From Aminivibrio pyruvatiphilus (lineage in GTDB: Bacteria > Synergistota > Synergistia > Synergistales > Aminobacteriaceae): a DNA stretch of 64,000 bases. A model generated the notes under the pieces. It saw only the letters and a program-made list of their open reading frames with translations. It did not search any database and had not been told where the DNA came from. The stretch covers positions 1,148-65,147 of the forward strand of contig NZ_SORI01000015.1 of the NCBI RefSeq assembly GCF_004366815.1. Reading direction: 5' to 3'. The position numbers and the translations under genes were made by a program. Shown here piece after piece: positions 780-30,520 of the stretch (position 1 is the stretch's first letter; each line of letters starts with the position of its first letter).

Positions 780-1110
780 TGAGGTGAGTTAACTCCCCGC
801 TTCGCTCGCTCGGGACGACAAGCAATTTCCATTCGTTCGGGACGGAGGGTGTCATCCTGAGCGGAGCGAAGGATCTCGTTTTCGGTCCGCCATTCCGAAC
901 AACTGTAGAGTCAGAACCGAGATCCTTCCGGCGGAAAAGCACGCCGTCAGGATGACAAACAAGGGCAATCCCGTTCGTTCGGGACGGAGGGTGTCATCCT
1001 GAGCGCAGCGAAGGATCTCGCTTTCGGTCTGCCATTCCGAACAACTGTAGAGTCAAAACCGAGATCCTTCGGGCGAAAAAACAGCCCTCAGGATGACAAA
1101 ATTCCGGGGC
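780..1110. repeat. Intergenic nested-palindromic repeat array (two ~125-bp units), family shared with 7 other loci in the window
   Basis: Units carry TGTCATCCTGAGCG...CGCTCAGGATGACAA outer inverted repeats and GAAGGATCTCG...CGAGATCCTTC inner inverted repeats. 850-965 and 982-1100 are near-identical. Confidence 0.85.
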
Positions 1111-1179
1111 ATTGGCCACAGGACAACAGACAAAGACATCTCCGGGGAGGGGGAATCTCGCCCTTTGGCCCTAAGAAGG

Positions 1180-2583
1180 TTAGATCTCTCCAAGCAGTTT
1201 TTCCAGATTTACCAGCATAGTGTTTTCCGTTCTTTCAGCCTCTTTTCGCAGTCCCTCGGTAAAACCTGCCCTGCTGAAGAGGCAGTATTCCCGTTTTTTG
1301 TCCCTCAGCAGCAGCGTGGAGCGCTTCTGCAGTTTTTCCATTTCCCGCAGACCGGTCTTCTCGCCTTTCCATTTACACTCCCCGAAAAGGGCCCACTCAA
1401 TGTCGGATCCCACGATGTCGATTTCCTCCTGCTGCCTGGTTTCCGGGTCGCTGCCCCACCAGCGGGCAAATTCCCGGTAGACTGTACGCAGACTTTTCTG
1501 CCTGTTCAGACGGACAAGGTACTGGCGGCAGATATCCTCGAACACTGGGCCGAAGTAGTCGCTGAAATGAGGAGCGATCATCTTTTCGAAAGCCTCGTCC
1601 GGCATCCCCATCCCGATGAGGGACATGGCGCCGGGGATGAACCGGTACCAGAAGCGGAAGAGCTGGTCTTTCACCCGGTAGACCACTTTTCTGCTGTTGT
1701 TGTCCCCGAAGGGGTAGTCTTTCTGTATAATCTCCAGGTCGATGAGAGCCTTGAGGTAGTTCGCCACGCTTTTTGACGGCATGCCGACCTTTGTGGATAT
1801 TTCGGCCTGGCGGCTTGCTCCCCCTGCGATGGCCCGAAGGATGGAATTGTAGACCGCGGGCTCCCGCATTTCCTGTTTCATGAGATTGGCCGGCTCCTCG
1901 AACAGAACGCCGGTCCCTGTCAGAAACTCCTCTTCGACGGCCTGTCTGAAGCTGCCGTGACGCCCTGCAGCAAGGACATACTGGGGTATTCCTCCGGTGA
2001 TTCCGTATCCGTAGAGCTGTTCGTGTCCTTTCCAGCCCGGGAAAAACTTCATGCTGTCAAAGCAGCCGAGGGGCTGGATTTTGAACTGGGCGGTCCGCCT
2101 GCCGTAGAGGGGGCTTTTGTAGTCCAGAACCTGGTGTTCCATGAAGCTCATGGAGGATCCGCACAGGATGAGAAAAAGCTGTGTTCCGGAGAAATAATGA
2201 TCTATGGCTTTCTGGAGAATGGAGGGCAGAGACGGATTTGCCGAGGCGATGTAGGGGAACTCGTCGATGACAAGGACAATCCGCTCTTCCCGGGCGAAGT
2301 CGGCCACGTATCTGAAGGCCGAGTCCCAGGAATCGAAGGAGGAAATGAACGACGACTGCTTCCCGGGAAGGCTCCGGAGCACTTCGTCCGAGAACATGCG
2401 GAGGGCTTCGGAATCGTTCTGCTCGATTGACGCGTAGAAGACCGTTCGTTTCCCCGTGCAGAATTCACGGATCAGGCGGGTTTTTCCCACCCGCCTGCGG
2501 CCGTAGATCACGGGCATCTGGAAGCCTTTTTCACCATAGAGCCGGTTCAGCTTCTCCATTTCGAATTCTCTGCCGATGAACAT
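1180..2583 (-). CDS. ATP-binding protein, archaeal-ATPase (PF01637)/DUF234 family
   Basis: 467 aa. N-terminal FIGREFEMEKLNRLYGEKGFQMPVIYGRRRVGKTRL carries a Walker A motif. Domain organisation is typical of the DUF234 ATPase family. Confidence 0.75.
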   Translation of the reverse strand: MFIGREFEMEKLNRLYGEKGFQMPVIYGRRRVGKTRLIREFCTGKRTVFYASIEQNDSEALRMFSDEVLRSLPGKQSSFISSFDSWDSAFRYVADFAREERIVLVIDEFPYIASANPSLPSILQKAIDHYFSGTQLFLILCGSSMSFMEHQVLDYKSPLYGRRTAQFKIQPLGCFDSMKFFPGWKGHEQLYGYGITGGIPQYVLAAGRHGSFRQAVEEEFLTGTGVLFEEPANLMKQEMREPAVYNSILRAIAGGASRQAEISTKVGMPSKSVANYLKALIDLEIIQKDYPFGDNNSRKVVYRVKDQLFRFWYRFIPGAMSLIGMGMPDEAFEKMIAPHFSDYFGPVFEDICRQYLVRLNRQKSLRTVYREFARWWGSDPETRQQEEIDIVGSDIEWALFGECKWKGEKTGLREMEKLQKRSTLLLRDKKREYCLFSRAGFTEGLRKEAERTENTMLVNLEKLLGEI

Positions 2584-2609
2584 GGGAACCCCTTCTTCAG
2601 TCTCATTTT

Positions 2610-2641
2610 ACGTTTAGTCTAAATGCGATTAGACTAAACGT
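2610..2641. promoter_or_regulatory. 32-bp perfect palindrome (13-bp arms, 6-bp spacer) in the promoter region of the DUF234 ATPase gene
   Basis: ACGTTTAGTCTAA-atgcga-TTAGACTAAACGT, centred ~45 nt upstream of the ATG at 2583. It sits in an AT-rich patch with TATATAT-like -10 candidates. Confidence 0.5.
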
Positions 2642-2659
2642 AATTAGATATATATGATG

Positions 2660-3480
2660 GTATATTCAAATGGCGGTGGTGTCAAGGGTGTTGCCATCCT
2701 GAGCGAATGCGATGGATCTCGGACTTGAGGCACACCAGAGTCAAAATCGAGGTCCTTCCCCTCCGGGGATGCTCCCTCCGCTTCGCTTGGGTGCTGCGCG
2801 ATCGCGATCGCGGTGCTCAGGACGACAAAAAACAAGGTCTCAGGACGACAGAGGGTTGTCATCCTGAGACCGGGGGTATGGCCGAAGGATCTGGGGTGAG
2901 TTTCTGGACCTCGATTCTTTTGAGTCTGAATGCCGAAGTTTTGAAACATCCGGTCTGGACGCACTTCAAAAGCCAACCCGGATCCTTCGCTGCCGCTCAG
3001 GATGACAGAAAAAGGTACTCCTTGCTGTGGGATGCTCCCTCCGCTTCGCTTGGGTGCTGCGCGATCGCGATCCGGCGAAAAGCACACCGTCAGGACGACA
3101 GGCAAGGGCACTAAACCGAGATTCTTCGTCGCTGCACTCCTCAGAATGACAAAATTACGGCCCCGGCCACGGGCTCGGGGGCATACTGAGCGAAAGCCGT
3201 TGCGCAGTATCCCCGGAGGGGAAAGACCTTGGATTTGTCGTCCTGAACGGAGTGAAGGACCTGAATTCAGGTCCTCAGAATCAAAACCGAGATCCTTCCG
3301 GCGAAAAGCACGCCGTCAGGATGACAAACAAGGGGCAAACCCGTTCGCTCGGGACGACAAATAACTGCCGCTCGTTTGGGGCGACCGACAACTGCATTCG
3401 AGCGGGACGGAGGGTGTCATCCCGAGCGATCGCGATCGCGGAGCATCCCCGGAGGGGAGGGATCTCGCTCCTGGTATCTC
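2660..3480. repeat. Intergenic repeat array, same family
   Basis: Multiple copies of the GTCATCCTGAGC / GCTCAGGATGACA and CGAGATCCTTC / GAAGGATCTCG modules, plus the CCCTCCGGGGATGCTCC and GCGATCGC motifs. Confidence 0.8.
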
Positions 3481-3551
3481 CCCGTTTTCATTTTTCTGCG
3501 GCGCTATGCTATCCTTTTTTAGATGCGAAAAAGGCCGGAGGAGCTGAAGTC

Positions 3552-3866
3552 ATGGAGCGTTCCTATTACGTCTATCTTCTTGCAAATGCAAACAACCGGG
3601 TGCTCTACACCGGAGTCACGAACAACCTGAAGCGGCGGCTTTTTGAGCATAAGCGCGGTCTTGTCGAAGGGTTTACGAAGAAGTATCGTGTTCATAAACT
3701 GGTGTATTTCGAGGAAACCAATGATGTTAATACTGCGATAGCAAGGGAAAAGGAAATAAAGGGATGGATCAGGGCGAAGAAAAACGCCCTTGTCGAGAAA
3801 GAGAATTCAGGTTGGAGTGATCTGAGCAAGGGATGGGAGGTCGATTCTTCCCTTCCGGAAAAGTGA
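3552..3866 (+). CDS. GIY-YIG nuclease family protein (small URI-domain protein, COG2827-like)
   Basis: 104 aa. YYVYLLANANNRVLYTGVTNNLKRRLFEHKRG...IAREKEIKGW is a canonical GIY...YIG motif. Flanked on both sides by repeat arrays. Confidence 0.8.
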   Translation: MERSYYVYLLANANNRVLYTGVTNNLKRRLFEHKRGLVEGFTKKYRVHKLVYFEETNDVNTAIAREKEIKGWIRAKKNALVEKENSGWSDLSKGWEVDSSLPEK

Positions 3867-3899
3867 TCGTACAAAAAAGACAGTTTGTAGGAAGTGTTT

Positions 3900-4560
3900 G
3901 GAGTGTTATGTCATCCTGAGGCCTGCTGGAATGCTGTCATCCTGAGCGCAGCGTGACCTTGAAATCCACAAAAAACAACCCTGAGATCCTTCCCCTCCGG
4001 GGACGCGATCGGGCGGTGAAACAGCCCTCAGGATGACAGAACCCATACTTCCCGCTTCGCTCCGGATGCTCAGCGACCGCGATCGCTGCGCTCAGGATGA
4101 CAAACAAGGGCAATAGCGGCCCTTTCTTGACTCTGGTGTGTCATTCTGAGGGCGAAGCCCGATCGCGGAGCATCCCCGGAGGGGAAGAATCTGCACTTGA
4201 AGTGGCTCAGAATCAAAGGCAGGTCCCTCGCCCCCTCCGGGGACGAGATCGGGTGGTGAAACAGCCCTCAGGAAGACAGAACCCATACTTCCCGCTTCGC
4301 TCTGGGTGCTACGCGACCGCGGTCGCTGCGCTCAGGATGACAAACAAGGGCAATAGCGGCCCTTTCTTGACTCTGGTGTGTCATTCTGAGGGCGAAGCCC
4401 GATCGCGGAGCATCCCCGGAGGGGAAGAATCTGCACTTGAGGCAGCCCAGAATCAAAGGCAGGTCCCTTCTACACGGAGGGGAAGGGGTTCTTCATAAAG
4501 GGTTAGAGTCAAAACCGAGATCCTTCCGGCGAGAAGCCACGCCGTCAGGATGACAGCCGA
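3900..4560. repeat. Intergenic repeat array including a ~240-bp direct duplication (approx. 4010-4250 vs 4250-4490)
   Basis: Near-identical blocks ACAGCCCTCAGGA(T/A)GACAGAACCCATACTTCCCGCTTCGCTC...GGCAATAGCGGCCCTTTCTTGACTCTGGTGTGTCATTCTGAGGGCGAAGCCCGATCGCGGAGCATCCCCGGAGGGGAAGAATCTGCACTTGA occur twice. Confidence 0.8.
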
Positions 4561-4679
4561 GGGCAAAGCCCTTCGCTCGCCCGTGACGACATAAACGATT
4601 GCCCCGGCCCGCCCCCTATGCATTCGCCGCCCGAGCCGTCATAATAGGATGCATCAGATGGAAGCAGGGAGTGCGCTGA

Positions 4680-5825
4680 ATGGACGAGAAAGGCATCATT
4701 GTGTGTGCCGAGGAGATAGACGAGGGGCTGGAGCTTCAGCTCTGGAGCAGGGGGAAGACTCCCCGCCTGGTGATTGTCAACCGGGCGAAAAACACGAAGA
4801 AGATGAGCCCCCTGAGCTGGCTGGAGGGGGAAGAGAGAAAGCTGTCCCTCAAAGGGGCGGGAGGCAAGCCGGTCCATTATCCCATGGAGGTACTGGAGGA
4901 GCCGGTACGGAGGATGCTCTACCGGTTCGCCCAGGACCCTGTGTTCAAGGGGCTGCTGTGGCATTCCGTCCTCTTTCTGTCTGACCTGTTCCACGCTCCC
5001 AGGTCGGTGTTCGACAAAGGCGAGATGGCCCTCCTTCCCGAAGGGAAGCGGCGGTGCCTGTGGCTGGCTGATTTTACCGATGGCGGCGGGAAGGGCTTCT
5101 TCCGCCCCTTCTTTCCCCTGTCGGAGGCGGAAATGGCGGTCTTCGGAGGGGAGCCCTCCATCCCGATTCCGGGAGGAAAGTCAGTGGCCGACCTGAAGAA
5201 GACGGGGATCACGAGAAAGCTCGCCTCCGTCTGCCCCGAACGGTGGTATGAAACACCCCGGACTGCAGCGGCCGCGGTTCTGCTCGGCTTTTCCCTGGAC
5301 TGCGAGGAGAGCGGCGACTTTTCATCCTTTCTCTGGAAGGCCGCCGATGGCGGAGTGGTGTCCAAAGAAGCTCTTGCGGCAGCTCCCGCGGACCCTTCCA
5401 TCTCGAGGTTCGCCGCGAAGATGACGGGGTATGTGCGTCACTGGGCGGCCCTGGACAGTATTTCCGTGGAAACGGTTCTCGACTCCTATGACGCGATGAA
5501 GGAGAGGGGGTTTGCCCGGAAACGGCGGATGCAGTTCCCAGTGGGGGCCCTCGGAAACGTCGAGTATACGGTCACCCTCTATTCTGACGGGAAGGGAGCC
5601 ATGGCCGTGGGGTGCGTTCCCGGCCAGGCGACGGACCGGCACAGGGGGGAAAGGGTGTTCACTCTGCCGGAGGAGGTTTACGGGCAGGCACTGCGGGACG
5701 ATTCCTTCGGGGGAGCGGAGGACGACTTTTTCACCCTGTCCGCGCTGCTCCAGGCGAAGCTGTACGAGGGATGGCACCGCAGGATCAGGCGGTTTACGGA
5801 CGTTTTTCTTTCGCCGGGAGGGTAG
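4680..5825 (+). CDS. Hypothetical protein with no recognisable domain; forms an operon with the downstream DUF72 gene
   Basis: 381-aa ORF with GC3-rich codon usage. Its stop at 5823-5825 lies 2 nt before the next ATG. Confidence 0.45.
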   Translation: MDEKGIIVCAEEIDEGLELQLWSRGKTPRLVIVNRAKNTKKMSPLSWLEGEERKLSLKGAGGKPVHYPMEVLEEPVRRMLYRFAQDPVFKGLLWHSVLFLSDLFHAPRSVFDKGEMALLPEGKRRCLWLADFTDGGGKGFFRPFFPLSEAEMAVFGGEPSIPIPGGKSVADLKKTGITRKLASVCPERWYETPRTAAAAVLLGFSLDCEESGDFSSFLWKAADGGVVSKEALAAAPADPSISRFAAKMTGYVRHWAALDSISVETVLDSYDAMKERGFARKRRMQFPVGALGNVEYTVTLYSDGKGAMAVGCVPGQATDRHRGERVFTLPEEVYGQALRDDSFGGAEDDFFTLSALLQAKLYEGWHRRIRRFTDVFLSPGG

Positions 5826-5827
5826 CC

Positions 5828-6772: not shown

Positions 6773-7108
6773 AGCTGAAAACATTAGAAAATAAGAGCCT
6801 GCAGTCTGGAATCGCCAATATTTCCGCTCCATAGGGCGTAGTCAGTGTTGATGAAAAGCACCCCCAAGGGTAGAATACTCTAAACGGGTTATCCGGACGG
6901 AGAGAACAGAAACGAGAAGCAAGTCAGGAAAAACCGATAGAAGCAGAAACAAGTCCAAGACAGCCTGTACCATGTTCCACCAGCACCGGAAGCTACACTG
7001 AAAAGAACCGGAACAAAAGAAGCATGTAAGGGTATATGCAACAATATCAAGGAGCTGGTTGTTTGACCAAGTGTCAGCACCACCGCGCCGGATAGCCCGT
7101 AAACAATC

Positions 7109-7146
7109 GGAGGGGGGATTTTTCCCCCTCCTTTTTTTATTTTTTC
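7109..7146 (+). terminator. Rho-independent terminator ending a ~330-nt low-GC non-coding stretch
   Basis: GGAGGGGG-gattttt-CCCCCTCC perfect 8-bp stem followed by TTTTTTTATTTTTT. Confidence 0.6.
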
Positions 7147-7214
7147 ATCCATTCCGACAAAAAAGTGCTACTATTACTGTGGAACACAATATCCGTCAAG
7201 GGGAGGGAATGTGC

Positions 7215-7841
7215 ATGCGTTTTTGGGTTCTTTTCTGCCTGGTCTTTTCAATGCTTTTTACCGGGGTGTCCGGGCTAACTCCTGCACTCGGGGCTGACGA
7301 GGCCCTGCTTCGGGGAGTCGTGTACGACGAAGGGCAGAAGGGACTGCCCGGCGTCGCAGTTTCCGTGTGGGACGGCAAACTGTCCTACAAGGCCGTCACT
7401 GATTTCGACGGGAATTTCACCATCCGGGGGCTCATTCCCGGAAAGCCCTTCGCCATCCGGTGGACCCCCCGGGGCGGCAATTCCGTGAAAGTTGACGCCC
7501 TGACCTTTCCCGCCGAAGGAGACCTCCATCTGTCCATGGATTACGGTTCCGTGGGCAGGGGGAACGTCTACACGGTGCGCCTCCCGTCCAACCCCTCCAC
7601 GGGATACGGCTGGACGGCCCTTCACCAGGGGGTTGCCGTGGTGCGTCTGAAGGAAAATACCTTCCACGGGGAAGGGGATTCTTTCCCCGAGAGGGCAAAG
7701 ACCGGACGGCCAGGCACGGAGCTGTGGAAGTACGAGGGAATCGCGAAGGGAAATACGGCCCTCATTTTCGGCTACCAGCGCCCGTGGGAGAAGGGGACCA
7801 CTCCCGTGCGGTACCATGTTCTTTCCATGACGGTAAGATAG
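7215..7841 (+). CDS. Secreted chagasin-like cysteine-peptidase inhibitor (family I42) with an N-terminal CarboxypepD_reg-like domain
   Basis: Signal peptide MRFWVLFCLVFSMLFTGVSG. Chagasin signature NPSTGYGW (compare NPTTGY) inside YTVRLPSNPSTGYGWTALH...ELWKYEGIAKGNTALIFGYQRPWE. RBS GGGAGGGA upstream. Confidence 0.65.
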   Translation: MRFWVLFCLVFSMLFTGVSGLTPALGADEALLRGVVYDEGQKGLPGVAVSVWDGKLSYKAVTDFDGNFTIRGLIPGKPFAIRWTPRGGNSVKVDALTFPAEGDLHLSMDYGSVGRGNVYTVRLPSNPSTGYGWTALHQGVAVVRLKENTFHGEGDSFPERAKTGRPGTELWKYEGIAKGNTALIFGYQRPWEKGTTPVRYHVLSMTVR

Positions 7842-7862
7842 TTTGCTAAGAAAGGCATACCG

Positions 7863-7895
7863 GGCAGCCCTCCTTCCGAAGGCTGCCTTTTTTTA
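7863..7895 (+). terminator. Stem-loop plus T-tract after the inhibitor gene
   Basis: GGCAGCC-ctccttccgaa-GGCTGCC followed by TTTTTTTT. Confidence 0.5.
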
Positions 7896-7919
7896 TCCTG
7901 TGAAACCGGGAGGAAACCG

Positions 7920-9533
7920 ATGAAAATCCTTCGATCCGTTCTGCTTTTCTTCGCCGTTCTTTTTTCTGCCCTGATTACTTCATTTCCCCTGGAGGCTTTT
8001 TCCGTGTTTACCCGGCCTACCGGGGATGAATTCGCCCGGTTCCGGGAAAATCCGCCCTCAGGCCGGAATACCGCCGCCCATCCTCTGGGTTACCGGCCTT
8101 CGCCCCTGGACCTCTCCCATGTCCGGCCCTCCGCGTCTCTCAGGGGAGAACTGGACATCCTGGCGGCCGGGGCGGGAGGAGCCCCCGTCTTTCCCCGGAG
8201 CTTCGACCTGAGAGAACTGGGCGCCCTCACTCCGATGAGGGACCAGAATCCCTTCGGCACGTGCTGGGCCTTTGCTTCTCTGGCGTCCCTCGAGTCCACC
8301 TTCCTGAAGGCCGGGAAGGGGGCCTTCGACTTTTCCGAGTGGCACCTCGCGTATTTCGCCTACGTGGACGAGGATCCTTCTCTGCCCGCCTTCACGGCGA
8401 CCGCCCCGGGATTTGGCTCAGACCCCATTTTCGACCAGGGAGGGAGCGTATTCCAGGCGGCAGCCCTTCTTGCCCGGTGGACGGGGGCCGTGGCGGAATC
8501 GACCCGTCCGTACCAGAACACCAGCCCGTGGCCGGAATCCAGCAGGCCCCGCGCCTCCGACAGGGCGGCGAAGCGGCTGGAGAACGTCTTCCTGATCCAG
8601 GGTGAAGGATTACTGGACGAGGAGGCCGTCAAATACGCCCTGATGCGCTGGGGGGCGGTGAGTGTCCGGGTGGTCTGGGATGACGGCGCCTATTCCGAAG
8701 ATCACGCTTCCTTCTACAATGCTCCGGAATCAGGAGGCGGCCATATTGTGACCGTCGTCGGGTGGGACGACGATTTTCCGGCGGCGAATTTCGTTGCCGC
8801 TCCCGGCCGCGACGGGGCATGGATCGTTCGGAACAGCTGGGGTACCGGCTGGGGAGAAGAGGGGTATTTCTATCTTTCCTACGCCGAGCCGACCCTGGGC
8901 TATCCGGCGGTCTTTCTCGGCGGAGACGACACTGCATTCGACAGGATCTACCAGTACGACCCCCTCGGATGGGTGAATAATATAGGTGCCGGAGGCGAAA
9001 CGGCATGGTTCGCCAACATTTTTGAATCCCGGGGAAATGAAACCCTCGAGGCCGTATCCTTCTACGTTCCGGCACCCGACGCGTTTTTGCGGGTGGAGGT
9101 CCGGACGGGAGTGGCGCGGGACGACCCAGGGAGCGGCGAACTGGTCTCCGTGATGGAGGATATCCTGGGACCGTCGGGTTACCACACGGTGCGTCTTTCC
9201 AGGAGTGTTCCGCTGTCGGGAGGCCGGAGATTTTCCGTGGCGGTGAGGGTTACCACGCCGGGGTTTCTCAATCCCGTCGCGGTGGAATCCCGGGAAATCG
9301 GCTACAGCGACAAGGCGGACGCGGAACCGGGGCAGAGCTTCATCAGTTCGGACGGGGTATCCTGGAACGACCTGACGACCCTTCCCGGTCACGGAAATTC
9401 CAATGTCTGCCTGAAGGCCTTCACTTCCGTTTCCTCGTCCGGCGGCGGGTGCTCCTTTGGGGGAGAATCCGGAGTTTCCGGTCTTCTGCTCCTTCTGCCC
9501 CTGGTTCCGGTGCTCTGGAGGCGGAGGAAGTAA
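7920..9533 (+). CDS. Secreted papain-like cysteine peptidase (C1A family) with C-terminal extension and a GGGC-TM-RRRK sorting tag
   Basis: Catalytic Cys block DQNPFGTCWAFASLASLE. His block GGGHIVTVVGWDDD. Asn block NSWGTGWGEEGYFYLSY. Signal peptide present. Tail SSGGGCSFGG...LLLLLPLVPVLWRRRK. Confidence 0.85.
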   Translation: MKILRSVLLFFAVLFSALITSFPLEAFSVFTRPTGDEFARFRENPPSGRNTAAHPLGYRPSPLDLSHVRPSASLRGELDILAAGAGGAPVFPRSFDLRELGALTPMRDQNPFGTCWAFASLASLESTFLKAGKGAFDFSEWHLAYFAYVDEDPSLPAFTATAPGFGSDPIFDQGGSVFQAAALLARWTGAVAESTRPYQNTSPWPESSRPRASDRAAKRLENVFLIQGEGLLDEEAVKYALMRWGAVSVRVVWDDGAYSEDHASFYNAPESGGGHIVTVVGWDDDFPAANFVAAPGRDGAWIVRNSWGTGWGEEGYFYLSYAEPTLGYPAVFLGGDDTAFDRIYQYDPLGWVNNIGAGGETAWFANIFESRGNETLEAVSFYVPAPDAFLRVEVRTGVARDDPGSGELVSVMEDILGPSGYHTVRLSRSVPLSGGRRFSVAVRVTTPGFLNPVAVESREIGYSDKADAEPGQSFISSDGVSWNDLTTLPGHGNSNVCLKAFTSVSSSGGGCSFGGESGVSGLLLLLPLVPVLWRRRK

Positions 9534-9536
9534 AAC

Positions 9537-10060
9537 CGGGATCCCTCCCCTCCGGGGATGCTCCGCGATCGCATTCGCTCGGGATGACATCAGTTTCTGT
9601 CGTCCTGAGCAACGCGAAGGACCTCGATTTTGATTCTGCTCTCTCTAAAGGATACTTCGCGAGCGCATTTGTTTGTCATCCCGAACGACCGAAGGGCGGA
9701 GGGATCTCGGCTTTGGTTCCGAGTGCCGTCAACCCCGAGATCCCTCCCCCTCCGGGGATGCTCGGCATTGGTTTGTCATCCCGAACGACCGAAGGGCGGA
9801 GGGATCTCGGCTTTGGTTCCGAGTGCCGTCAACCCCGAGATCCCTCCCCTCCGGGGACGCGATCGGCCATGGTGCCGGCCTCGGGATGACAAGCCACTTC
9901 GCTCGGGATGACAGATCGGTCGGTGTCATTTTTTAGTTGTCATTCCGAGGAGCGGTTTTGGCGACGAGGAATCTCGCTTTGGATTCCAGGCGGACTCAAC
10001 CCGAGATCCCTCGGCCAAAAACCCGACCTCGGGATGACACCTTTTAGAGAATTCCATGCC
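9537..10060. repeat. Intergenic repeat array, same family
   Basis: Repeated blocks TTTGTCATCCCGAACGACCGAAGGGCGGAGGGATCTCGGCTTTGGTTCCGAGTGCCGTCAACCCCGAGATCCCTCCCC(C)TCCGGGG at ~9668-9760 and ~9772-9860. Confidence 0.8.
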
Positions 10061-10089
10061 GTTTTTATTGAAAAAGGAGAGACCCTTCA

Positions 10090-11757
10090 ATGAGACTGAC
10101 CCGTTCCATTCTTTTCGCTGCCGCATGCATTTTCCTGCTTTCTCCGGATCTGTCCGCTTCAGAAAAGTGGAGAACTGCCCCTCTCAACACCGAGTTTTTG
10201 GCTCACCGTTCAGGGATGAGCTTCAATCTCCATTCTATGGGTGGACCGGGCAGGATGAATACGGCCCATCGGCGGATGCTCGGAGAAGTACCTTCCCCCC
10301 TCGACCTTTCCCACGTGAGGGCTCCCGTGCATTTTTCCGGTATCCGGGGGGGAGGCGACGTGTCTGCCTCCGCCGTCTCCTTCCCTTCGTCCTTCAGCCT
10401 CCCCGCTGAGGGGCGGATGACGCCGATACGGGACCAGGCGCCCTACGGAACCTGCTGGGCTTTCGGCGCTTTTGCTTCCCTCGAGTCCTTTTTTGCCGGC
10501 CAGGGGGAGGAGAACCTTGATTTTTCGGAGTGGCATCTCGCCTATTTCGCCTATGTGGACGAAGGGGAGGGACTGCCGGGATTCACACAACACCTGGACC
10601 CCCAGTTCGGGGGAGACCCCGTTTTCGACCAGGGGGGAAACGCATGGAAGTCCGCTGCACTTCTCGCCCGCTGGACCGGCGCAGTGGCGGAAGCCGACCG
10701 GCCCTACCAGAACGTCACCCCCTGGCCGGAGGAAAGCAGGCCCCTCTCATCGGACAGAGCGGCGAAGAGGCTCGAGCACGTTCTTTACCTCGGCTCGGCG
10801 CCCGATATGGACAGCATAAAATACGCCCTCACCCACTACGGAGCCGTTCGCATCGGCGTCAGATGGCCTTACTGGGATTTTGAACACGAGGTGCTCAGCC
10901 CTTCCTTCGCCTTTTACAACTACGATCCTGTCGGTTTTCAGAGCGGAGGCCATGCGGTGGCCATTGCCGGTTGGGACGACGATTACCCCGCGGCCAATTT
11001 CGTTGGGGATCCTGGACGGAACGGCGCCTGGCTGGTGAAGAACAGCTGGGGGGAAGCATGGGGAAATGACGGGTATTTCTGGGTTTCCTACGCCGACCCC
11101 ACGCTGAACAGCCCGTCGGCGTACATCGGTGGAGAAGCGGACATCTTCGATTCCGTCTACCAGTACGACCCGCTTGGATGGGTGAACGATTACGGCGCCG
11201 GGAACGAGACTGCCTGGTTCGCCAACGTCTTTGCCGCTTCGGAAGGGCGCCCCGGGCTGGCCGAGGTACTTCGGGCAGTTTCCTTTTATTCGGCAGCCAC
11301 GGAGAGTTCGTATCGCATTGAGATCAGGCGGAACGTGTCCCGTTCCGCTCCTTTTGAAGGCGTCCCGGTGTCCGTGAAGGAGGGGGTTTTGGGACCGTCA
11401 GGCTATCATACGGTTCGGCTAGACAGGGAGGTCTTTCTCTCCCCGGGCAATCTTTTTTCCGTGGCGGTGAAGATCACCACTCCGGGCTACGCCTATCCCG
11501 TACCTCTCGAATCATCGGAAGCCGGCTACAGCGACAAGGCGGATGCTGGACCGGGGCAGAGCTTCATCAGCGCCGACGGGGTTTCCTGGAACGATTTGAC
11601 GGCTCTTCCCGGGCACGAAAAGTCCAACGTCTGCCTGAAGGCCTTCACTTCCTTCGCAGAAAATTCCGGGGGCGGCTGCTCCCTGGGAGGAGGCGGGTTC
11701 GCAGGTCTTCTGCTCCTTCTGCCCCTGGTGCCGGTGCTCAGGAAGCGGGGGAAATAA
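10090..11757 (+). CDS. Secreted papain-like cysteine peptidase (C1A family), paralog of 7920-9533, with the same C-terminal sorting tag
   Basis: DQAPYGTCWAFGAFASLES; GGHAVAIAGWDDD; NSWGEAWGNDGYFWVSY. Tail NSGGGCSLGGGGFAGLLLLLPLVPVLRKRGK. Confidence 0.85.
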   Translation: MRLTRSILFAAACIFLLSPDLSASEKWRTAPLNTEFLAHRSGMSFNLHSMGGPGRMNTAHRRMLGEVPSPLDLSHVRAPVHFSGIRGGGDVSASAVSFPSSFSLPAEGRMTPIRDQAPYGTCWAFGAFASLESFFAGQGEENLDFSEWHLAYFAYVDEGEGLPGFTQHLDPQFGGDPVFDQGGNAWKSAALLARWTGAVAEADRPYQNVTPWPEESRPLSSDRAAKRLEHVLYLGSAPDMDSIKYALTHYGAVRIGVRWPYWDFEHEVLSPSFAFYNYDPVGFQSGGHAVAIAGWDDDYPAANFVGDPGRNGAWLVKNSWGEAWGNDGYFWVSYADPTLNSPSAYIGGEADIFDSVYQYDPLGWVNDYGAGNETAWFANVFAASEGRPGLAEVLRAVSFYSAATESSYRIEIRRNVSRSAPFEGVPVSVKEGVLGPSGYHTVRLDREVFLSPGNLFSVAVKITTPGYAYPVPLESSEAGYSDKADAGPGQSFISADGVSWNDLTALPGHEKSNVCLKAFTSFAENSGGGCSLGGGGFAGLLLLLPLVPVLRKRGK

Positions 11758-11759
11758 AA

Positions 11760-12340
11760 TCGAGATCCCGAGCATTCGCTCGGGATGACAGTAGTTTCTG
11801 TCGTCCTGAGCAACGCGAAGGACCTCGATTTTGATTCTGCTCTCTCTAAAGAACGTTCCGCGATCTCATTTGTTTGTCATCCCGAACGACCGAAGGGCGG
11901 AGGGATCTGCCCTCTGGTTCTGAGTGACGTCAAACCCGAGATCCTCCCCCTCCGGGGATGCTGCGCGATCGCTGCGCTCAGGATGACAAACCGCTGCGCT
12001 CAGGATAACAAACAAGGCTGTCATCCTGAGGGTTGCTTCACCGCCCGAAGGATCTCGGTTTTGATTCTCGCTTTTTTGGTTTTACCGGATTCCAACCCGA
12101 GATCCTTCGCTGCGCTCAGGATGACAACAGTTTCTGTCGTCCTGAGCAACGCGAAGGACCTCGGTTTTGATTCTGCTCTCTCTCAAGGATGCTCCGCGAT
12201 CTCATTTGTTTGTCATCCCGAACGACCGAAGGGCGGAGGGATCTCGCCTTTGGTTCTCGGGGTTGGTTTTTTGTGGATTTTAAGGGCGAGATCCTTCGCT
12301 GCGCTCAGGATGACAAACCGCTGCGCTTAGGATGACAGCT
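11760..12340. repeat. Intergenic repeat array, same family
   Basis: AGTTTCTGTCGTCCTGAGCAACGCGAAGGACCTCG(A/G)TTTTGATTCTGCTCTCTC...ATTTGTTTGTCATCCCGAACGACCGAAGGGCGGAGGGATCT block occurs at ~11785-11905 and ~12125-12245. Terminal GCTCAGGATGACAA copies. Confidence 0.8.
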
Positions 12341-12342
12341 TT

Positions 12343-13789: not shown

Positions 13790-14213
13790 TCTAGTGCGAG
13801 ATTCCAAGGGCGAGATCCTTCCCTTCCGGGGATGCTCCTCCCTCCGCTTCGCTTGGGTGCTGCGCGAGCGCGATCGCATTCGCCCGGGATGATAAGGCGA
13901 GACGAGAACAAGCCAAAGCGAGAACAAGCCAAAGCGAGAACAAGCCAAAGCGAGAACAAGCCAAAGCGAGAACAAGCCAAAGCGAGATCCTTCGCTGCGC
14001 TCAGGATGACAATCCAAGGGCAAGATCCTTCCCCTCCGGGGATGCTTCGCGATCGCTTCGCTCAGGATGATAAACCGCTTCGCTCGGGATGATAAACAAG
14101 ACTGTCATCCTGAGGCCGGTTTTTTGGCCGAAGGATCTCGGGGTTGACTCTGAATGAAGTAAACCCGAGATCCTCCCCCTTCGGCGATGGCGCCTGCCTC
14201 GGGATGACAACTC
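13790..14213. repeat. Intergenic repeat array containing a 16-bp tandem repeat (GAGAACAAGCCAAAGC x5.5, 13905-13990) upstream of the S8 peptidase gene
   Basis: The 16-mer recurs head-to-tail. It is flanked by CGAGATCCTTCCCCTCCGGGGATGCT and GCTCAGGATGACAA family modules. Confidence 0.8.
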
Positions 14214-16879: not shown

Positions 16880-17400
16880 GAGGTAATCCTGAGGGCGTTT
16901 TCGGATTGTCATCCTGAGGAGCGTAGCGAGGAAGGATCTCGGGATTGACTCTGAATGGAGTAAAAATCGAGATCCTTCCCCTCCGGGGATGCTTCACGAT
17001 CGGCCATGGAGCCGGCCTCGGATGACAAACAGGGGCGAGATCCTTCGCTGCGCTCAGGATGACAAAGCAAAAGCATGATGGCAAACTGCTGCGTTCAGGA
17101 TGACAAACAGGGGCGAGATCCTTCGCTGCGCTCAGGATGACAAAGCAAAGAGCATGATGGCAAACTGCTGCGTTCAGGATGACAAACAGGGGCGAGATCC
17201 TTCGCTGCGCTCAGGATGACAGAGCCGCTGCGCTCAGGATGACAAAGCAAAAGCATGATGGCAAACTGCTGCGTTCAGGATGACAAACAGGAGCGAGATC
17301 CTTCGCTGCGCTCAGGATGACAGAGCCGCTGCGCTCAGGATGACAGAGCCGCTGCGCTCAGGATGACAGGCTATTCGGGACGACAAGGTCCTTTGAAGGT
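16880..17400. repeat. Repeat array with ~83-bp tandem units (3+ copies) and reiterated 23-bp GATGACAGAGCCGCTGCGCTCAG sub-units
   Basis: CAAACAGGGGCGAGATCCTTCGCTGCGCTCAGGATGACAAAGCAAAAGCATGATGGCAAACTGCTGCGTTCAGGATGA repeats head-to-tail across 17027-17300. Confidence 0.85.
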
Positions 17401-17939: not shown

Positions 17940-17956
17940 GGTCTGCCCTCCCCTCC

Positions 17957-18658: not shown

Positions 18659-18667
18659 GACCCTGTG

Positions 18668-21590: not shown

Positions 21591-21713
21591 GGGAATTGCC
21601 CTCCTTTTCCCGGCGGAAACGGCCGGAATATCCGTTTTTTTTATTATACAGCTCGCCGGGCGACCGGAGGAAAGAGGGGGCGGGGTTCGGTGATTGTGTA
21701 TGCAGTATCCTTC

Positions 21714-21743
21714 TTGACAGCGAGGCTTCCCGTGGCCTATAAT
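21714..21743 (+). promoter_or_regulatory. Near-consensus sigma70-type promoter for the peptide ABC transporter operon
   Basis: TTGACA (21714-21719), 18-nt spacer, TATAAT (21738-21743), ~105 nt upstream of the SBP start codon. Confidence 0.5.
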
Positions 21744-21850
21744 CCTTCCGTATGCAGAAGGGGATGCACCAGGGAAAGCCTGTCAAGATCAATGCAAAAG
21801 GCAACTTTTTCCCGGCCTCTCTGCGTAAATATATCGAAGGAGATGACAGA

Positions 21851-23362: not shown

Positions 23363-23500
23363 GAGGAGACCGTCGGAGAACCGCTTCTGCCGGGGCTCCC
23401 TGGCTGCACGTCCGGCTGAAGTACTGAAAGCGGTCATGTTGCAGGAGCATGGAGAATTCTATGCTCCTGCTTTATTTTCCAACGGAAGGATGAACAGCGT

Positions 23501-24427: not shown

Positions 24428-24457
24428 GAGTGCCCCATACCGTCAGGAGGAACAGCC

Positions 24458-25333: not shown

Positions 25334-25346
25334 GAGACCACACACA

Positions 25347-26339
25347 ATGGAAGACAAAAAATTGCTGCTCGACATACAGGACCTCTCGATCCACTACGTA
25401 GTGGAAAGCGGCACCGTCCACGCGGTGGAGCACCTCAATCTTTCCCTCGCTCCCGGAGAGAACCTCGGCTTCGTCGGGGAGACCGGAGCGGGCAAAACCA
25501 CCACGGCCCTTGGGATCATGGGGCTCGTGCCGAACCCTCCGGGGAAGGTCGTCAGCGGGAAGATCCTCTTTGAAGGAGAAGACCTGCTGAAGAAGCCGGA
25601 GGAACAGATGCGCTCCATCCGGGGAGGCAAGATCGCCATGATCTTCCAGGACCCCATGACCTCCCTGAATCCCGTCATCACCGTGGACAAGCAGATCGCG
25701 GAGATGGTGCTCCTCCACAACGACGTGACGGAGCAGCAGGCCCTTGAGCGGGCCGAGGAGATGCTCGAGCTCGTGGGCATCAAGAGGGAGCGGGCGAGGG
25801 ACTACCCCCACCAGTTCAGCGGAGGCATGAAGCAGCGGGTGGTCATCGCCATCGCCCTTGCGTGCAACCCGACCCTGCTCATCGCCGACGAACCCACCAC
25901 GGCCCTCGACGTCACCATCCAGGCCCAGGTGCTGGAGCTGATGCACGAACTCCGGAGGAAGATCAACACGTCCCTCATCATGATCACCCATGACCTGGGC
26001 ATCGTCGCCGAAATGTGCGACAAGGTGGCCATCATGTATGCCGGAAAGGTGGTGGAATACGCCCCCACGGAGGCACTGTTCAATCACCCCGGCCATCCCT
26101 ACACCGAGGGGCTGTTCAATTCCATTCCCGACCTTGATTCCGACGAAGAGGAGCTGAAGGTCATCCAGGGCCTGATGCCGGATCCCACGAATCTTCCGTC
26201 GGGATGCACGTTCCACCCCCGCTGCCCCTACGCGGTGGAAGCCTGTTCGAAGGACGTCCCTCCCATGGTGGAGATCGAGCCCGGACATTTCGTGGCGTGC
26301 CCCGTGCGGGGAAAGCCCTACCTTCACCTCGGGAAATAG
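25347..26339 (+). CDS. ABC transporter ATP-binding protein (DppD/OppD-like)
   Basis: Walker [10 protein letters not shown]. Signature [12 protein letters not shown]. Walker [14 protein letters not shown]-terminal oligopeptide-transporter extension with Cys residues. Confidence 0.9.
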
Positions 26340-26350
26340 GGGGGAGCAGA

Positions 26351-27331
26351 ATGGAACAGACACATCCGATGGTTGAAGTCACCAACCTGAAAAAATACTT
26401 CAAGACCAAGCGGGGAATGCTCCACGCCGTTGACGACGTTTCCTTCACCATCCGCAAGGGGGAGACCCTCGGCCTCGTGGGCGAGTCGGGATGCGGGAAG
26501 TCCACCCTCGGACGGGTGATGATCCGCCTGCTGGAAGCGACCGGCGGGGAGGCAAAGTTCTGGGGTGAGGATATCCTCAGGTATTCAGCGGGAAAGATGA
26601 AGGATATGCGGAGGAAGGTCCAGATTGTTTTCCAGGACCCCTATTCCAGCCTGAACCCGCGGCTGTCGGTGTCCGAGCTCATCGCGGAACCCCTGCTCGT
26701 GAACAGGGTGTACTCCTCGGCAGCCGAGCGGAACAGGAAGATCGCCGAGCTGATGGATACCGTGGGCCTCGCCAGGCGGCTCATGAACGCATACCCCCAC
26801 GAACTTGACGGCGGAAGGCGCCAGAGGATCGGCATCGCCAGGTCCCTCGCCCTGTCGCCGGAATTCATCGTCCTGGACGAGCCGGTATCCGCCCTGGACG
26901 TGTGCATCCAGGCCCAGATCCTGAACCTTCTGAACAGTCTCCAGAAGCAGTTCGGCTACACCTACGTCTTCATCTCCCACAACCTGAGCGTGGTGAAGCA
27001 CGTGTCGGACCGCATCGCGGTCATGTACCTGGGAAAGATCGTGGAACTTTCGGACTACAAGAGCCTGTTCGTGGAGCCCCTGCATCCCTACACCCAGGCC
27101 CTTCTGTCGGCGATTCCCCTGCCGAAGTTCGGAAAAAAGCGGGACCGCATCATCCTGGAAGGGGACGTTCCCAGCCCCATCGAGCCTCCCGAGGGATGCC
27201 GGTTCCAGGGACGGTGCCCCTACAGGCAGGACGTCTGCAAAGAGAAGACCCCGGAGCTGAGGGAACTCGAGCCCGGCCGGTTCGTGGCCTGCCATTTCGC
27301 GAGAACCCTCGTGCCGGCCTCGGGAAAATAA
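26351..27331 (+). CDS. ABC transporter ATP-binding protein (DppF/OppF-like)
   Basis: GESGCGKST; [15 protein letters not shown]; [12 protein letters not shown]. Confidence 0.9.
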
Positions 27332-27355
27332 GACAAGGGAACAGAACGGGAGAAA

Positions 27356-28402
27356 ATGATGAAGATCGATATGGAGTACGTGCTCCGGCTGCTCAGGGAA
27401 CTGATGGACATCCCATCGGTGGCCGGGGACTGCCGGAAAATTCTGGACAGGACCGAAAGGGAGTTTCTCTCCTTCGGCCTTCCGGTCAAGAGAACCCGCA
27501 AGGGGGCCCTTCTCGCGACCATGAAGGGGCGGAACGACGAGGAAGTCCGTCTCGTCTCCGCCCACGTTGATACCCTCGGGGCGGTGGTCCGGGAGATCAA
27601 GCCCAACGGACGGCTTCGCCTCCTCCAGATCGGGGGCTTCGCCTGGACCTCCTTCGAGACCGAGAATCTTGTCGTCCGGACCGCCTCGGGCCGGGATGTC
27701 CGGGGAAGCCTTCTTCCGGAGAAGGCCTCCATCCACGCCTTTTCCGATACGGTCCGGGAGACCCTGCGGACCGACGAGAACATGGAGGTCCGCCTGGACG
27801 AGCCCGTTTCCTCCCCGGAGGACGTCCGGGCCCTCGGGATCGAGGTGGGAGATTTTGTCTTCTTCGACCCCCGGTACGAAGTTTCGGAATCGGGTTTCGT
27901 GAAGTCACGCTTCCTCGACGACAAGGCCTGCGTCGCCTTCCTGTTCGGGGCGATAAAGGCCGTGAAGGATTCCGGAATTCCTCCGGCCCATACGACCGTG
28001 TTCTACCTGACCAACTACGAGGAGCACGGTCACGGTATCTCCTGTCTGCCGGAGAATACGACGGAGCACCTCGCCCTTGACGTGGGGATCGTGGCCCCTC
28101 CGGCAAATTCCAGGGAGGACGCCGTGACCATCGTGGCCCGGGACAGCCGGACCCCCTACGACTTCGCCTTCAGGAAGTTCCTGTCCGACCTCGCCGCGGA
28201 GAACAACATCCCCTTCAGGGTGGACACTCACTTCCGGTATGGCTCCGACGCCAGCCTCGCGGCCGTGGCGGGCTTCGACGCCAATTTCGCCTGCTTCGGG
28301 CCCGGCGTGGACGCGTCCCATTCCTACGAACGCACCACCATCAGGGCGGTGGAGGCCTCCGGTGAACTTCTCGCCGCCTATCTCGTCACCGACAGGAAAT
28401 AA
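27356..28402 (+). CDS. M42 family metallopeptidase (glutamyl aminopeptidase / FrvX-like)
   Basis: YVLRLLRELMDIPSVAGDCRK...VSAHVDTLG...FLDDKACVAFLF are M42 conserved blocks. Follows directly after dppF. Confidence 0.8.
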   Translation: MMKIDMEYVLRLLRELMDIPSVAGDCRKILDRTEREFLSFGLPVKRTRKGALLATMKGRNDEEVRLVSAHVDTLGAVVREIKPNGRLRLLQIGGFAWTSFETENLVVRTASGRDVRGSLLPEKASIHAFSDTVRETLRTDENMEVRLDEPVSSPEDVRALGIEVGDFVFFDPRYEVSESGFVKSRFLDDKACVAFLFGAIKAVKDSGIPPAHTTVFYLTNYEEHGHGISCLPENTTEHLALDVGIVAPPANSREDAVTIVARDSRTPYDFAFRKFLSDLAAENNIPFRVDTHFRYGSDASLAAVAGFDANFACFGPGVDASHSYERTTIRAVEASGELLAAYLVTDRK

Positions 28403-28413
28403 GGAGTGAACAC

Positions 28414-29643
28414 ATGATGCCATCAGTTCTCGACCGTTTTTTGAAGTACATTCAGATCCCCACCCAGGCCGCCCACGGCAAAGATTCGGTTCCCAGCACC
28501 CCGGGGCAGATGACCCTTGCCGTAGAGCTTGGAAAGGAACTGCGGGCCCTGGGCCTTTCTGACGTGACCGTGGACGGGCACGCCTACGTCACGGCCACCC
28601 TCCCCGCCAACACGGACAAAAAGATCCCCGTCATCGCCTTCAACGCCCACCTGGACACGGCCCTGGAGGTCACGGACGACACGGTCCGTCCCCGGCTGGT
28701 GGAAAACTACGACGGAGGCGACATCGTCCTCAACGAAAAGGAGCGGGTGGTGCTCTCTCCTTCCACCTTCCCCGACCTGCTGAAGTACAGGGGCGAGACC
28801 CTGGTGGTCACCGACGGCACCACCCTCCTCGGCGCCGACGACAAGGCGGGAATCGCCGAGATCATGGCGGCCCTGGAATACATGACGAACCATCCGGAGT
28901 TCGTCCACGGCTGCGTGAAGGTGGTCTTCTCCCCGGACGAGGAGATCGGCCACGGGGCGAGCCTTCTGGATCTGGAGAAATTCGGCGCCGATTTCGCCTA
29001 CACCGTGGACGGCGGGGAAGCGGGGGAGATCAGCTACGAGACCTTCAACGCCGCCAGGGCGAAGGTGACGGTCCACGGACGGAGCGTCCACCCGGGCAAG
29101 TCCAAGAACAAGATGGTGAACTCCATCCTCCTGGGCATGGAGCTGGCCTCCATGTTCCCCGCGGACGAGACTCCGGCGACAACCGAGGCGTACGAGGGGT
29201 TCTTCCACCTCCTGGGCTTTTCGGGGAACGTGGAGACCACCACCATGGACTACATTATCCGGGACCACTCGCCGGAGAAGTTCCAGCAGAGAAAAAAGGC
29301 CATGGAGGACGCCGTGACGGCTTTGAACGGCCGGTACGGCCAGGGCACGGCGGATCTGGATATGGCCGACCAGTACTACAACATGCTGGAGAAGGTCAAG
29401 CCGGTGATGCATATCGTGGACACCGCTATGGATGCCATGAGGCAGTTGGACATCGAGCCGAAGGTCATCCCGGTCAGGGGGGGCACCGACGGCTCCCAGC
29501 TCAGCTACCGGGGGCTTCCGGCCCCGAACCTTTTCTCCGGCGGGCACAACGCCCACGGAAAGCACGAATTCATCGCCGTCTCCTCCATGGAGAAGGCGGT
29601 GAAGCTGATACTGAAGATCGTGGAGCTCTACGCGGGGAAATAG
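28414..29643 (+). CDS. pepT: Peptidase T (tripeptide aminopeptidase, M20B)
   Basis: LLDRFLKYIQIPTQ...IAFNAHLDT...LGADDKAGIAEIMAALEY...FSPDEEIG...GGTDGSQLSYRGLP are PepT hallmark blocks. Confidence 0.85.
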   Translation: MMPSVLDRFLKYIQIPTQAAHGKDSVPSTPGQMTLAVELGKELRALGLSDVTVDGHAYVTATLPANTDKKIPVIAFNAHLDTALEVTDDTVRPRLVENYDGGDIVLNEKERVVLSPSTFPDLLKYRGETLVVTDGTTLLGADDKAGIAEIMAALEYMTNHPEFVHGCVKVVFSPDEEIGHGASLLDLEKFGADFAYTVDGGEAGEISYETFNAARAKVTVHGRSVHPGKSKNKMVNSILLGMELASMFPADETPATTEAYEGFFHLLGFSGNVETTTMDYIIRDHSPEKFQQRKKAMEDAVTALNGRYGQGTADLDMADQYYNMLEKVKPVMHIVDTAMDAMRQLDIEPKVIPVRGGTDGSQLSYRGLPAPNLFSGGHNAHGKHEFIAVSSMEKAVKLILKIVELYAGK

Positions 29644-29644
29644 G

Positions 29645-30520
29645 AGGGGTTGGAGTTCCGGGTAATTTTGTCATCCCGAGGCCGGTTTTTTGGCCGATCG
29701 CGCAGCATCCCCGGAGGGGGAGGATCTCGGATTTAGTGATTTCCGGAATCAAGAGCAGATCCTTCGCTCCGCTCAGGATGACAAGCAAATGCGCTCATTC
29801 GGGACAGGGGTAGCCTGTCATCCTGAGGCCGGGTTCATGGCCGAAGGATCTCGGCTTTGACTCACTGAAAATCAAAATCGAGATCCCTCCCCCCCTCCGG
29901 GGATGCTCCGCGATCCCTTCGGTCGTTCGGGATGACAAGCAAAAGCACTCCTTCGGGACAGGGGTAGTCTGTCATCCCGAGGCCTGCTCTCTGACCGATC
30001 TCATCCCCGGAGGGGGAGGATCTCGGATTTAGTGATTTCCGGAATCAAGAGCAGATCCTTCGCTCCGCTCAGGATGACAAGCAAATGCGCTCCTCAGGAT
30101 GACAAGCAAAAGCACTCCTTCGGGACAGGGGTAGCCTGTCATCCTGAGGCCGGGTTCATGGCCGAAGGATCTCGGCTTTGAGTCACTGAAAATCAAAATC
30201 GAGATCCCTCCCCCCCTCCGGGGATGCTCCGCGATCCCTTCGGTCGTTCGGGATGACAGGCAAAAGCACTCCTTCGGGACAGGGGTAGCCTGTCATCCTG
30301 AGGCCGGGTTCATGGCCGAAGGATCTCGGCTTTGAGTCACTGAAAATCAAAAACGAGATCCCTCCCCCCCTCCGGGGATGCTCCGCGATCCCTTCGGTCG
30401 TTCGGGATGACAGGCATTGGCCTCCTGAAAACCAAATGCGAGATCCTTCGTGCCCTCCGGGGATGCTACGCGATCGCTTCGCTTCTCAGGATGACAGCTC
30501 CTGGTTTTGCTTTCTATTTC
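29645..30520. repeat. Largest intergenic repeat array: a ~155-bp unit x3 interleaved with a ~130-bp unit x2
   Basis: 155-bp unit (GCAAAAGCACTCCTTCGGGACAGGGGTAGCCTGTCATCCTGAGGCCGGGTTCATGGCCGAAGGATCTCGGCTTTGAGTCACTGAAAATCAAAATCGAGATCCCTCCCCCCCTCCGGGGATGCTCCGCGATCCCTTCGGTCGTTCGGGATGACA) at ~29790, 30105 and 30263. 130-bp unit at ~29668 and 29965. Confidence 0.85.

Follow-up and report, generated by a model that had tools for sequence, protein, structure and literature searches.

Ssn proteins form a family (cd10448) of single-domain GIY-YIG nucleases of ~90–105 aa. Their target is an oriented hairpin repeat, which they bind exclusively in the form of single-stranded DNA (ssDNA) and cut a few nucleotides upstream, the RNA form being left unbound by SsnA (Chenal et al., Nat Commun 2025, PMC11893778). 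The repeat of Neisseria is NTS (CGTCATTCCCGCGMAVGCGGGAATCYRG), an oriented form of dRS3; cleavage depends on the three nucleotides before the palindrome and binding on the C after it (PMC11893778). Such Ssn-related motif (SRM) repeats are dispersed over genomes in tens to hundreds of copies. The ssn gene is typically flanked by repeats, an architecture that the authors called insertion sequence (IS)-like, and in Neisseria meningitidis the system restricts the integration of NTS-bearing transforming DNA (PMC11893778). Related sequences were described as a superfamily of CGTC/TGTC-tagged repetitive extragenic palindromes (REPs), which consist of the tag, a stem of 8–9 positions starting from AT, a loop of 4–5 nt and a 3-nt tail, are mostly arranged in head-to-head pairs with spacers of 20–100 bp, and include dRS3/NIME of Neisseria and RPE-4/RPE-6 of Rickettsia (Di Nocera et al. 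2013, PMC3733652). Here we analyzed a 64-kb stretch of one genome, that of Aminivibrio pyruvatiphilus (contig NZ_SORI01000015.1, hereafter the window), which contains eight arrays of a palindromic repeat and, at 3552-3866, a gene for a small GIY-YIG nuclease. We consider it likely that these arrays are clusters of Ssn-related hairpin repeats, of the kind of NTS/dRS3 and the CGTC/TGTC REPs, and that this gene, referred to below as ssn, encodes their partner nuclease.

Structure of the arms and of the ssn gene

The repeat makes up ~4.7 kb (7.4%) of the window and is found in eight intergenic arrays of one family, many of them at the 3' ends of genes. A self-BLAST of the window recovered all eight loci where a preliminary description of this DNA had placed them. 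Four motifs were found in excess across the window: TGTCATCCTGAGCG, with at most one mismatch, at 33 sites (0.02 expected), GAAGGATCTCG at 50 sites (2.7 expected), CCCTCCGGGGATGCTC at 18 sites (0.2 expected) and GCGATCGC at 11 sites (1.8 expected). Approximately 70 hairpin arms, the building blocks of the arrays, lie within the first 30.5 kb and none in the other 33.5 kb; a scan for motifs and arms yielded no true arm past 30.5 kb, and the partial matches there were at chance level. Tandem Repeats Finder returned unit periods of 100, 154, 240 and 79/101 bp together with short tandems of 22-25 bp, and five whole units folded as DNA gave long nested hairpins, with z-scores from -6.4 to -7.2 in four of them and of -2.4 in the fifth. 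The preliminary description of a non-autonomous, REP-like palindromic family that fills intergenic spaces, covers ~7% of the window, is not seen after 30.5 kb and is composed of tandem units of ~100-155 bp able to form nested hairpins is borne out by these results, as is its remark that the arrays generate spurious open reading frames (ORFs). Because all GCGATCGC sites are inside arrays, this motif is a module of the repeat and not a genome-wide signal of the HIP1 type. Cyanobacterial HIP1 was therefore ruled out (11 of 11 sites intra-array, none dispersed over the window).

The arms are 25-29 nt long with the consensus (T)GTC-ATCCT-GA-GC-GNA-GC-GA-AGGAT-C-TC(G). The motifs of the 'outer' and 'inner' inverted repeats first described in this DNA are real, but no element is nested in another: the two repeats correspond to the 5' and 3' halves of one and the same arm, and the arms stand in inverted pairs. 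The minimal form is represented by the following reference:

992-1020, + strand: minimal arm TGTCATCCTGAGCGCAGCGAAGGATCTCG, with the TGTC tag, a 5-bp stem, a GA/GA internal loop, a GC-GNA-GC tip, the closing stem, C and tail

The minimum-free-energy DNA fold of the minimal arm is ....(((((..((...))..))))).... and the basal stems found in the window (ATCCT/AGGAT, ATCCC/GGGAT, GTCCT/AGGAC and ATTCT/AGAAT) are all four compensatory. The tip consists of the minimal GC-GNA-GC, of a GGCC...GGCC or CGGCG...CGCCG stem, or of a longer insert with CCCCGGAGGGG and GCGATCGC, and across these variants the TGTC tag, both GA dinucleotides and the 3' C are unchanged. Hairpin-competent arms in the arrays present the TGTC tag and a 3' stem ending in ...GGAYC. 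They are mainly arranged in head-to-head pairs with a spacer of 25-40 nt, and the arrays also contain tandem half-arms composed of the tag and the 5' stem only (e.g., 17304-17369). One module, CCCTCCGGGGATGCT, was absent from all other loci compared (L002-L204) and is specific to this lineage.

Covariation was measured on arms of the window and of a set of loci selected by their Ssn-like protein (see below). These arms were collected by means of a pattern in which the stem sequence is free and only the tag, both GA dinucleotides, G.A and the C are specified. This pattern identified 95 arms (68 distinct) relative to ~0.7 expected by chance. In this set, 95.4% of cells were paired in the proposed hairpin, and changes on both sides were observed at 7 of 7 pairs and in 79 cells, relative to 17.5 in shuffles (0 of 500 shuffles as high); pairing did not exceed 55% in slid controls. 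The arm is a hairpin, with compensatory changes behind all seven of its base pairs. Taken singly, the minimal arm has an unremarkable nearest-neighbour DNA energy (z = 0.22), a value of little weight either way, and nearest-neighbour models give no credit to sheared G-A pairs or GNA loops. The sequence GCGNAGC is that of a DNA mini-hairpin termed 'extraordinarily stable' (PMC13037366).

The protein encoded by ssn matched PF01541 over residues 5-77 (E = 1.4e-16) with no second domain in Pfam, and NCBIfam yielded only a sub-threshold match. It presents 45% identity to SsnA of N. gonorrhoeae by BLASTP (E = 1e-26), and a tblastn search of the N. gonorrhoeae chromosome detected a single locus, that of SsnA, at E = 7e-17, which is below the E < 1e-10 used to define SsnA homology in PMC11893778. 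At that locus, 9 NTS repeats surround the gene for a 94-aa protein. Residues Y8, Y19 and E66 of the window protein align with Y6, Y17 and E64 of SsnA (N. meningitidis numbering), the catalytic residues that were mutated in PMC11893778, and are invariant across 8 homologues. By these sequence comparisons, the window gene is homologous to SsnA of the Ssn single-strand nuclease family, and its product is the probable partner enzyme of the arms. The GIY-YIG gene had initially been listed as one of the accessory genes bracketed by arrays; its location is as described, but this listing missed that the gene is a homologue of a family that recognizes such hairpins. We note that NZ_CP119140.1 and NZ_CP119142.1, two N. 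gonorrhoeae sequences of 2.17 Mb each that are filed among plasmid records, are evidently chromosomes.

The window shares with the Ssn-NTS system a single-domain GIY-YIG protein of ~100 aa in which the catalytic Y, Y and E are kept, a gene located amid oriented hairpins in an arm-gene-arm layout, and repeats clustered around particular genes. The window arms keep what has been reported as functional determinants for SsnA: the unpaired GTC that precedes the stem and the C that follows it. In contrast, the window arm fails the published SRM pattern (HGTCWYN(0-2)YYVSBRHN(0-5)WNVSBRGN(0-2)RNCYNB; PMC11893778). Its stem is broken by the conserved GA/GA internal loop, a GC-GNA-GC mini-hairpin or a larger inserted module forms its tip, and tandem half-arms are common. 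As expected, the Neisseria NTS used as a control fits the SRM pattern.

With the CGTC/TGTC REPs, the window arms have in common the unpaired (C/T)GTC tag, a stem starting with AT, a short unpaired tail, an occurrence in several phyla, a predominance of head-to-head pairs with spacers of 20-100 bp (178 such pairs in the DNA compared) and an organization in mosaic clusters, as in the Neisseria intergenic mosaic elements. They differ from these REPs in their stem, which consists of 5 Watson-Crick pairs, 2 G/A positions and 2 further pairs instead of 8-9 contiguous pairs, in their tail (CTC(G) rather than CCA) and in the presence of the ssn gene inside the cluster. The stem reaches 9 positions only when the two G/A positions are counted, and the loop is GNA (3 nt), or CGNAG (5 nt) with the last pair opened. 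The exact arm sequence was not found in Di Nocera et al. 2013 or its supplements (PMC3733652), and a literature search by sequence returned nothing relevant.

Association of arms and ssn across bacteria

At least 120 stretches of species-representative genomes contain the exact 25-mer GTCATCCTGAGCGNAGCGAAGGATC; their hosts belong to at least 13 phyla, which include Patescibacteria, Acidobacteriota, Chloroflexota, Omnitrophota, Bacillota, Planctomycetota, Gemmatimonadota, Nitrospirota, Bacteroidota, Verrucomicrobiota, Synergistota and Pseudomonadota. Since it occurs in many phyla, the repeat is a dispersed family and not a local duplication, in agreement with the preliminary description. Head-to-head pairs are also the usual form outside the window, and tandem half-arms are present in unrelated phyla as well. 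The same 25-mer was detected in 64 predicted viral contigs of IMG/VR (L208-L271), with 1-11 arms per stretch. A phage origin was rejected: an Ssn homologue was found in none of the stretches taken from these contigs, and cultured-phage records contained distant GIY-YIG relatives only.

The association between the gene and the arms was observed in two sets of loci. The repeat-selected set comprises 120 loci with the exact 25-mer, for which all ORFs were clustered, and all four GIY-YIG homologues detected among them sit directly between arms. There was no widely common neighbour gene in these 120 loci: the largest shared clusters were found in 7 of them, and the two that we examined resemble a sensor kinase and an ABC ATPase. 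The protein-selected set was obtained when metagenomes were scanned with eight aligned homologues; this yielded 80 loci (49-67% identity). A GTC-tagged hairpin was located within 400 bp of the gene in 68 of these 80 loci (upstream in 59/76, downstream in 54/75 and on both sides in 45/71), and the density of arms was 3.87 per kb near the gene vs 0.72 per kb farther off. A tight arm(+)-gene-arm(-) unit was present in 30 of 67 loci. Homologues flanked by arms include those of the window and of loci L043, L062, L089, L091, L123 and L124, and the plasmid homologues of Planktothrix and Spirosoma present half-arm tandems as well as arms on their flanks.

The plasmid p1 of Planktothrix agardhii (L123, NZ_LR882964.1 17350-20616) encodes an Ssn homologue of 59% identity with arrays of arms and half-arms on both sides, and the neighbouring genes encode a type IIL MmeI restriction-modification enzyme and the DISARM helicase DrmA, which corresponds to a defence-island setting. 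An ORF of ~350 aa resembling luciferase-like oxidoreductases was found beside arm pairs in four repeat-selected loci (L006, L011 and L019, from Chloroflexota, and L109); this neighbour is probably incidental.

Arrays of the window and their change between strains

The arrays and the ssn-like gene are arranged as follows, with the extent of the self-BLAST match given in parentheses:

806-1098 (822-1100): array 1, a degenerate half-arm followed by two tandem head-to-head pairs (850-957 and 992-1098)
2692-3467 (2710-3480): array 2, a mosaic with the stems ATCCT, GTCCT, ATTCT and ATCCC
3552-3866, + strand: ssn-like gene, 104-aa nuclease with a single GIY-YIG domain, flanked by arrays 2 and 3
3909-4591 (3976-4579): array 3, immediately 3' of ssn, with a 240-bp unit in tandem duplicate (3992-4468)
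9537-10040 (about 9540-10040): array 4, 3' of the first papain-C1/lectin peptidase gene, with 1.9 copies of a 100-bp unit
11760-12337 (about 11770-12338): array 5, 3' of the paralogous peptidase gene, with 22-bp tandem half-arms at 11970-12013
13798-14209 (13798-14189): array 6, between the S8 subtilase and DUF2207 genes
16907-17368 (16903-17369): array 7, between the LemA and nitroreductase genes
29669-30496 (29667-30497): array 8, between the M20 peptidase gene and a LarB-like gene (AIRC domain), with 4.2 copies of a 154-bp unit

Array 1 lies downstream of the DUF234 ATPase gene and both of its units fold as DNA with z = -6.4; the unit 14103-14209 of array 6 does so with z = -7.2. The last arm of array 2 (3415-3467) is on the + strand and lies 85 nt before the start codon of ssn. 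Array 7 starts with one full head-to-head pair, continues with repeated minus-strand arms and ends with 23-bp tandem half-arms (17304-17369). The flanked genes are those of the DUF234 ATPase, a chagasin-type inhibitor, the two papain/lectin peptidases, the subtilase, DUF2207, LemA, nitroreductase, M20 peptidase and LarB-like proteins. The two papain-C1/lectin-like peptidase paralogues stand in tandem (7920-9533 and 10090-11757), with the chagasin-family inhibitor gene upstream (7059-7841). G+C content is 51-53% at positions 1-4000, where arrays 1-3 are located together with ssn and the gene of the DUF234 ATPase, vs ~60% elsewhere in the window. Between the arms of array 6, a perfect 16-bp tandem, CGAGAACAAGCCAAAG, occurs in 5.3 copies at 13903-13987 (100% identity) and has no sequence relation to the arms.

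The arrays are polymorphic between strains, as had been anticipated for this repeat. Three ENA contigs (L205-L207), one of them from a sample labelled wastewater metagenome, encode an Ssn protein identical to that of the window; they are 96-99% identical to the window across the ssn gene and then diverge inside array 3. There, these contigs present an intact head-to-head pair, at a point where the arm of the window is broken after TGTCATCCTGAGGCC, a difference that we read as an exchange with its breakpoint within an arm. In addition, the 240-bp duplication of the window is missing in at least one contig (L205), and one contig is without the 23-nt CCCCGGAGGGG module inside an arm. Within the window, the identity between arrays 4 and 5 is 81-96%, against 72-74% at the DNA level for the peptidase paralogues that precede them, and the closer similarity of the arrays indicates that they are remodelled faster than their flanking genes diverge. 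A look-up of the LemA protein for a strain comparison of array 7 returned no record. Every public contig found with the exact Ssn protein is short (605-1059 bp); assembly from short reads is probably interrupted at the arrays, which would leave such loci under-represented in assembled genomes.

Proposed mechanism and alternative explanations

Based on the published behaviour of SsnA, we propose that when DNA becomes single-stranded during replication or repair, or enters the cell as transforming or conjugative DNA, the tag-bearing strand would fold into a hairpin, and Ssn would bind the folded arm and cut a few nucleotides upstream. The cut could shorten or break single-stranded recombination substrates and might thereby modulate the exchange of the flanked genes. 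Arrays may grow and be reshuffled by arm-to-arm recombination, by duplication of units and by insertion of small modules into hairpin tips. The structure of the arms, the homology of ssn to SsnA, its association with the arms and the polymorphism of the arrays are observed in the sequences analyzed here. In this scheme, single-strand-specific binding and upstream cleavage are carried over from SsnA; that the window enzyme cuts the window arms, and that gene exchange is affected, are expected by analogy.

Several observations weigh against the assignment of the arrays to an Ssn system. The SRM pattern has 0 matches in the window vs 0.58 in shuffles, and among the arms near homologues it fits only 14 of 258, whereas the GA...GA platform is present in 187 of 258. 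Around the window ssn, the arm(+)-gene-arm(-) arrangement is looser than its tightest form: the upstream arm stands 85 nt off and the first downstream arms are half-arms. Covariation would be the same for an ssDNA or an RNA hairpin. Finally, protein identity is 58.2% within stem types vs 56.8% between them (p about 0.003), and since protein similarity tracks stem type this weakly, stem sequence may not be the main determinant of specificity.

The system itself was already published in 2025, and what we add is modest: a distinct and apparently widespread class of arms that the published pattern missed. With ~5% of the arms around this clade of homologues fitting it, the SRM pattern under-detects Ssn-associated repeats, and adding the GA-platform class would help Ssn surveys and searches for new ssDNA-cutting specificities. 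For the window, a published system accounts for 7% of the sequence and the spurious ORFs of the arrays are no longer candidate genes, and the strain-level differences of the arrays offer a place for studying array change.

Among the alternatives, the one that best survives, and that we nevertheless regard as unlikely, is that of an autonomous mobile element, in which arm-ssn-arm is an IS-like selfish unit, the arrays are its non-autonomous derivatives and any effect on the host is incidental. Such an element would move through single-strand cuts by Ssn followed by repair or template switching, as a GIY-YIG analogue of the RAYT 'REPtron'. The tight units found in 30 of 67 loci and the IS-like architecture noted by the authors of PMC11893778 fit this explanation, and so do the identical 25-mer in at least 13 phyla and 64 viral contigs, the tandem half-arms in unrelated phyla, the variability of arrays between near-identical strains and the closer similarity of arrays 4 and 5 relative to the duplicated genes upstream of them. 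However, no target-site duplications were detected around 178 head-to-head pairs, and a pair of empty and filled sites for a single arm pair was not recovered among the loci compared. GIY-YIG enzymes hydrolyse DNA without a covalent intermediate, and for this reason we know of no strand-transfer chemistry that they could offer to such an element. In Neisseria, moreover, SsnA acts as a host-level restriction factor for transformation (PMC11893778). A broader version of this idea also appears doubtful to us: the GA-platform arm, TGTC-AYYYY-GA-NN-GNA-NN-GA-RRRRT-C, would be a major pan-bacterial Ssn-associated class missed by the published survey, with arrays built by Ssn-dependent mobility as the GIY-YIG counterpart of the REPtron. 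If true, tandem half-arms and tip modules would be the traces left by successive rounds of single-strand cutting and repair.

A role mainly after transcription, in which the hairpins would stabilise 3' ends, serve as terminators or be small RNAs and the link to Ssn would be secondary, is improbable. The intergenic position of the arrays, many of them at gene 3' ends, the strong folding of whole units and the T-G pairings of the tag strand at pair 13-17 are all compatible with RNA, and many REPs have been argued to be transcribed (Di Nocera et al. 2013, PMC3733652). Against this, the tag strand shows A-C mismatches as often as wobble pairs at pair 5-25, arms stand in both orientations inside an array, arms are also found upstream of genes, and SsnA does not bind the RNA form (PMC11893778). 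Rfam returned no match for the whole window at gathering thresholds, and a search of 700-4700 at E <= 1 gave only an irrelevant weak match at 2436-2484, outside the arrays. The earlier suggestion of a structured-RNA family is not supported as far as known families are concerned. Searches of the window for known RNA families and tRNA-derived elements found none.

A REP/REPIN moved by a RAYT (a Y1 HUH transposase), or a classical miniature inverted-repeat transposable element (MITE) moved in trans by a DDE transposase, as the preliminary description had in part proposed, is very improbable: the palindromes, head-to-head pairs and BIME-like clusters would suit it, but the tag is TGTC and not GTAG/GTGG, GIY-YIG was the sole protein family found between arms in the 120 repeat-selected loci with no recurrent Y1 gene, the scanned ORFs of the window contain no transposase domain, direct repeats abutting the 178 pairs are at the expectation for shuffled partners, and no dedicated transposase or other enzyme was found for CGTC-tagged REPs (Di Nocera et al. 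2013, PMC3733652). An Ssn system shares with the RAYT-REP/REPIN/BIME systems of E. coli and Pseudomonas short hairpins with an unpaired 5' tag that a small nuclease recognizes as ssDNA, a nuclease gene flanked by repeats, inverted doublets and intergenic arrays; the differences are in the enzyme (HUH/Y1 transposase vs GIY-YIG hydrolase) and the tag (GTAG vs TGTC).

Self-BLAST of the window also revealed a pair of similar 422-bp segments, 49217-49638 and 53894-54316, which lie within the long minus-strand ORFs 49094-50485 and 53850-55151 and probably belong to paralogous genes.

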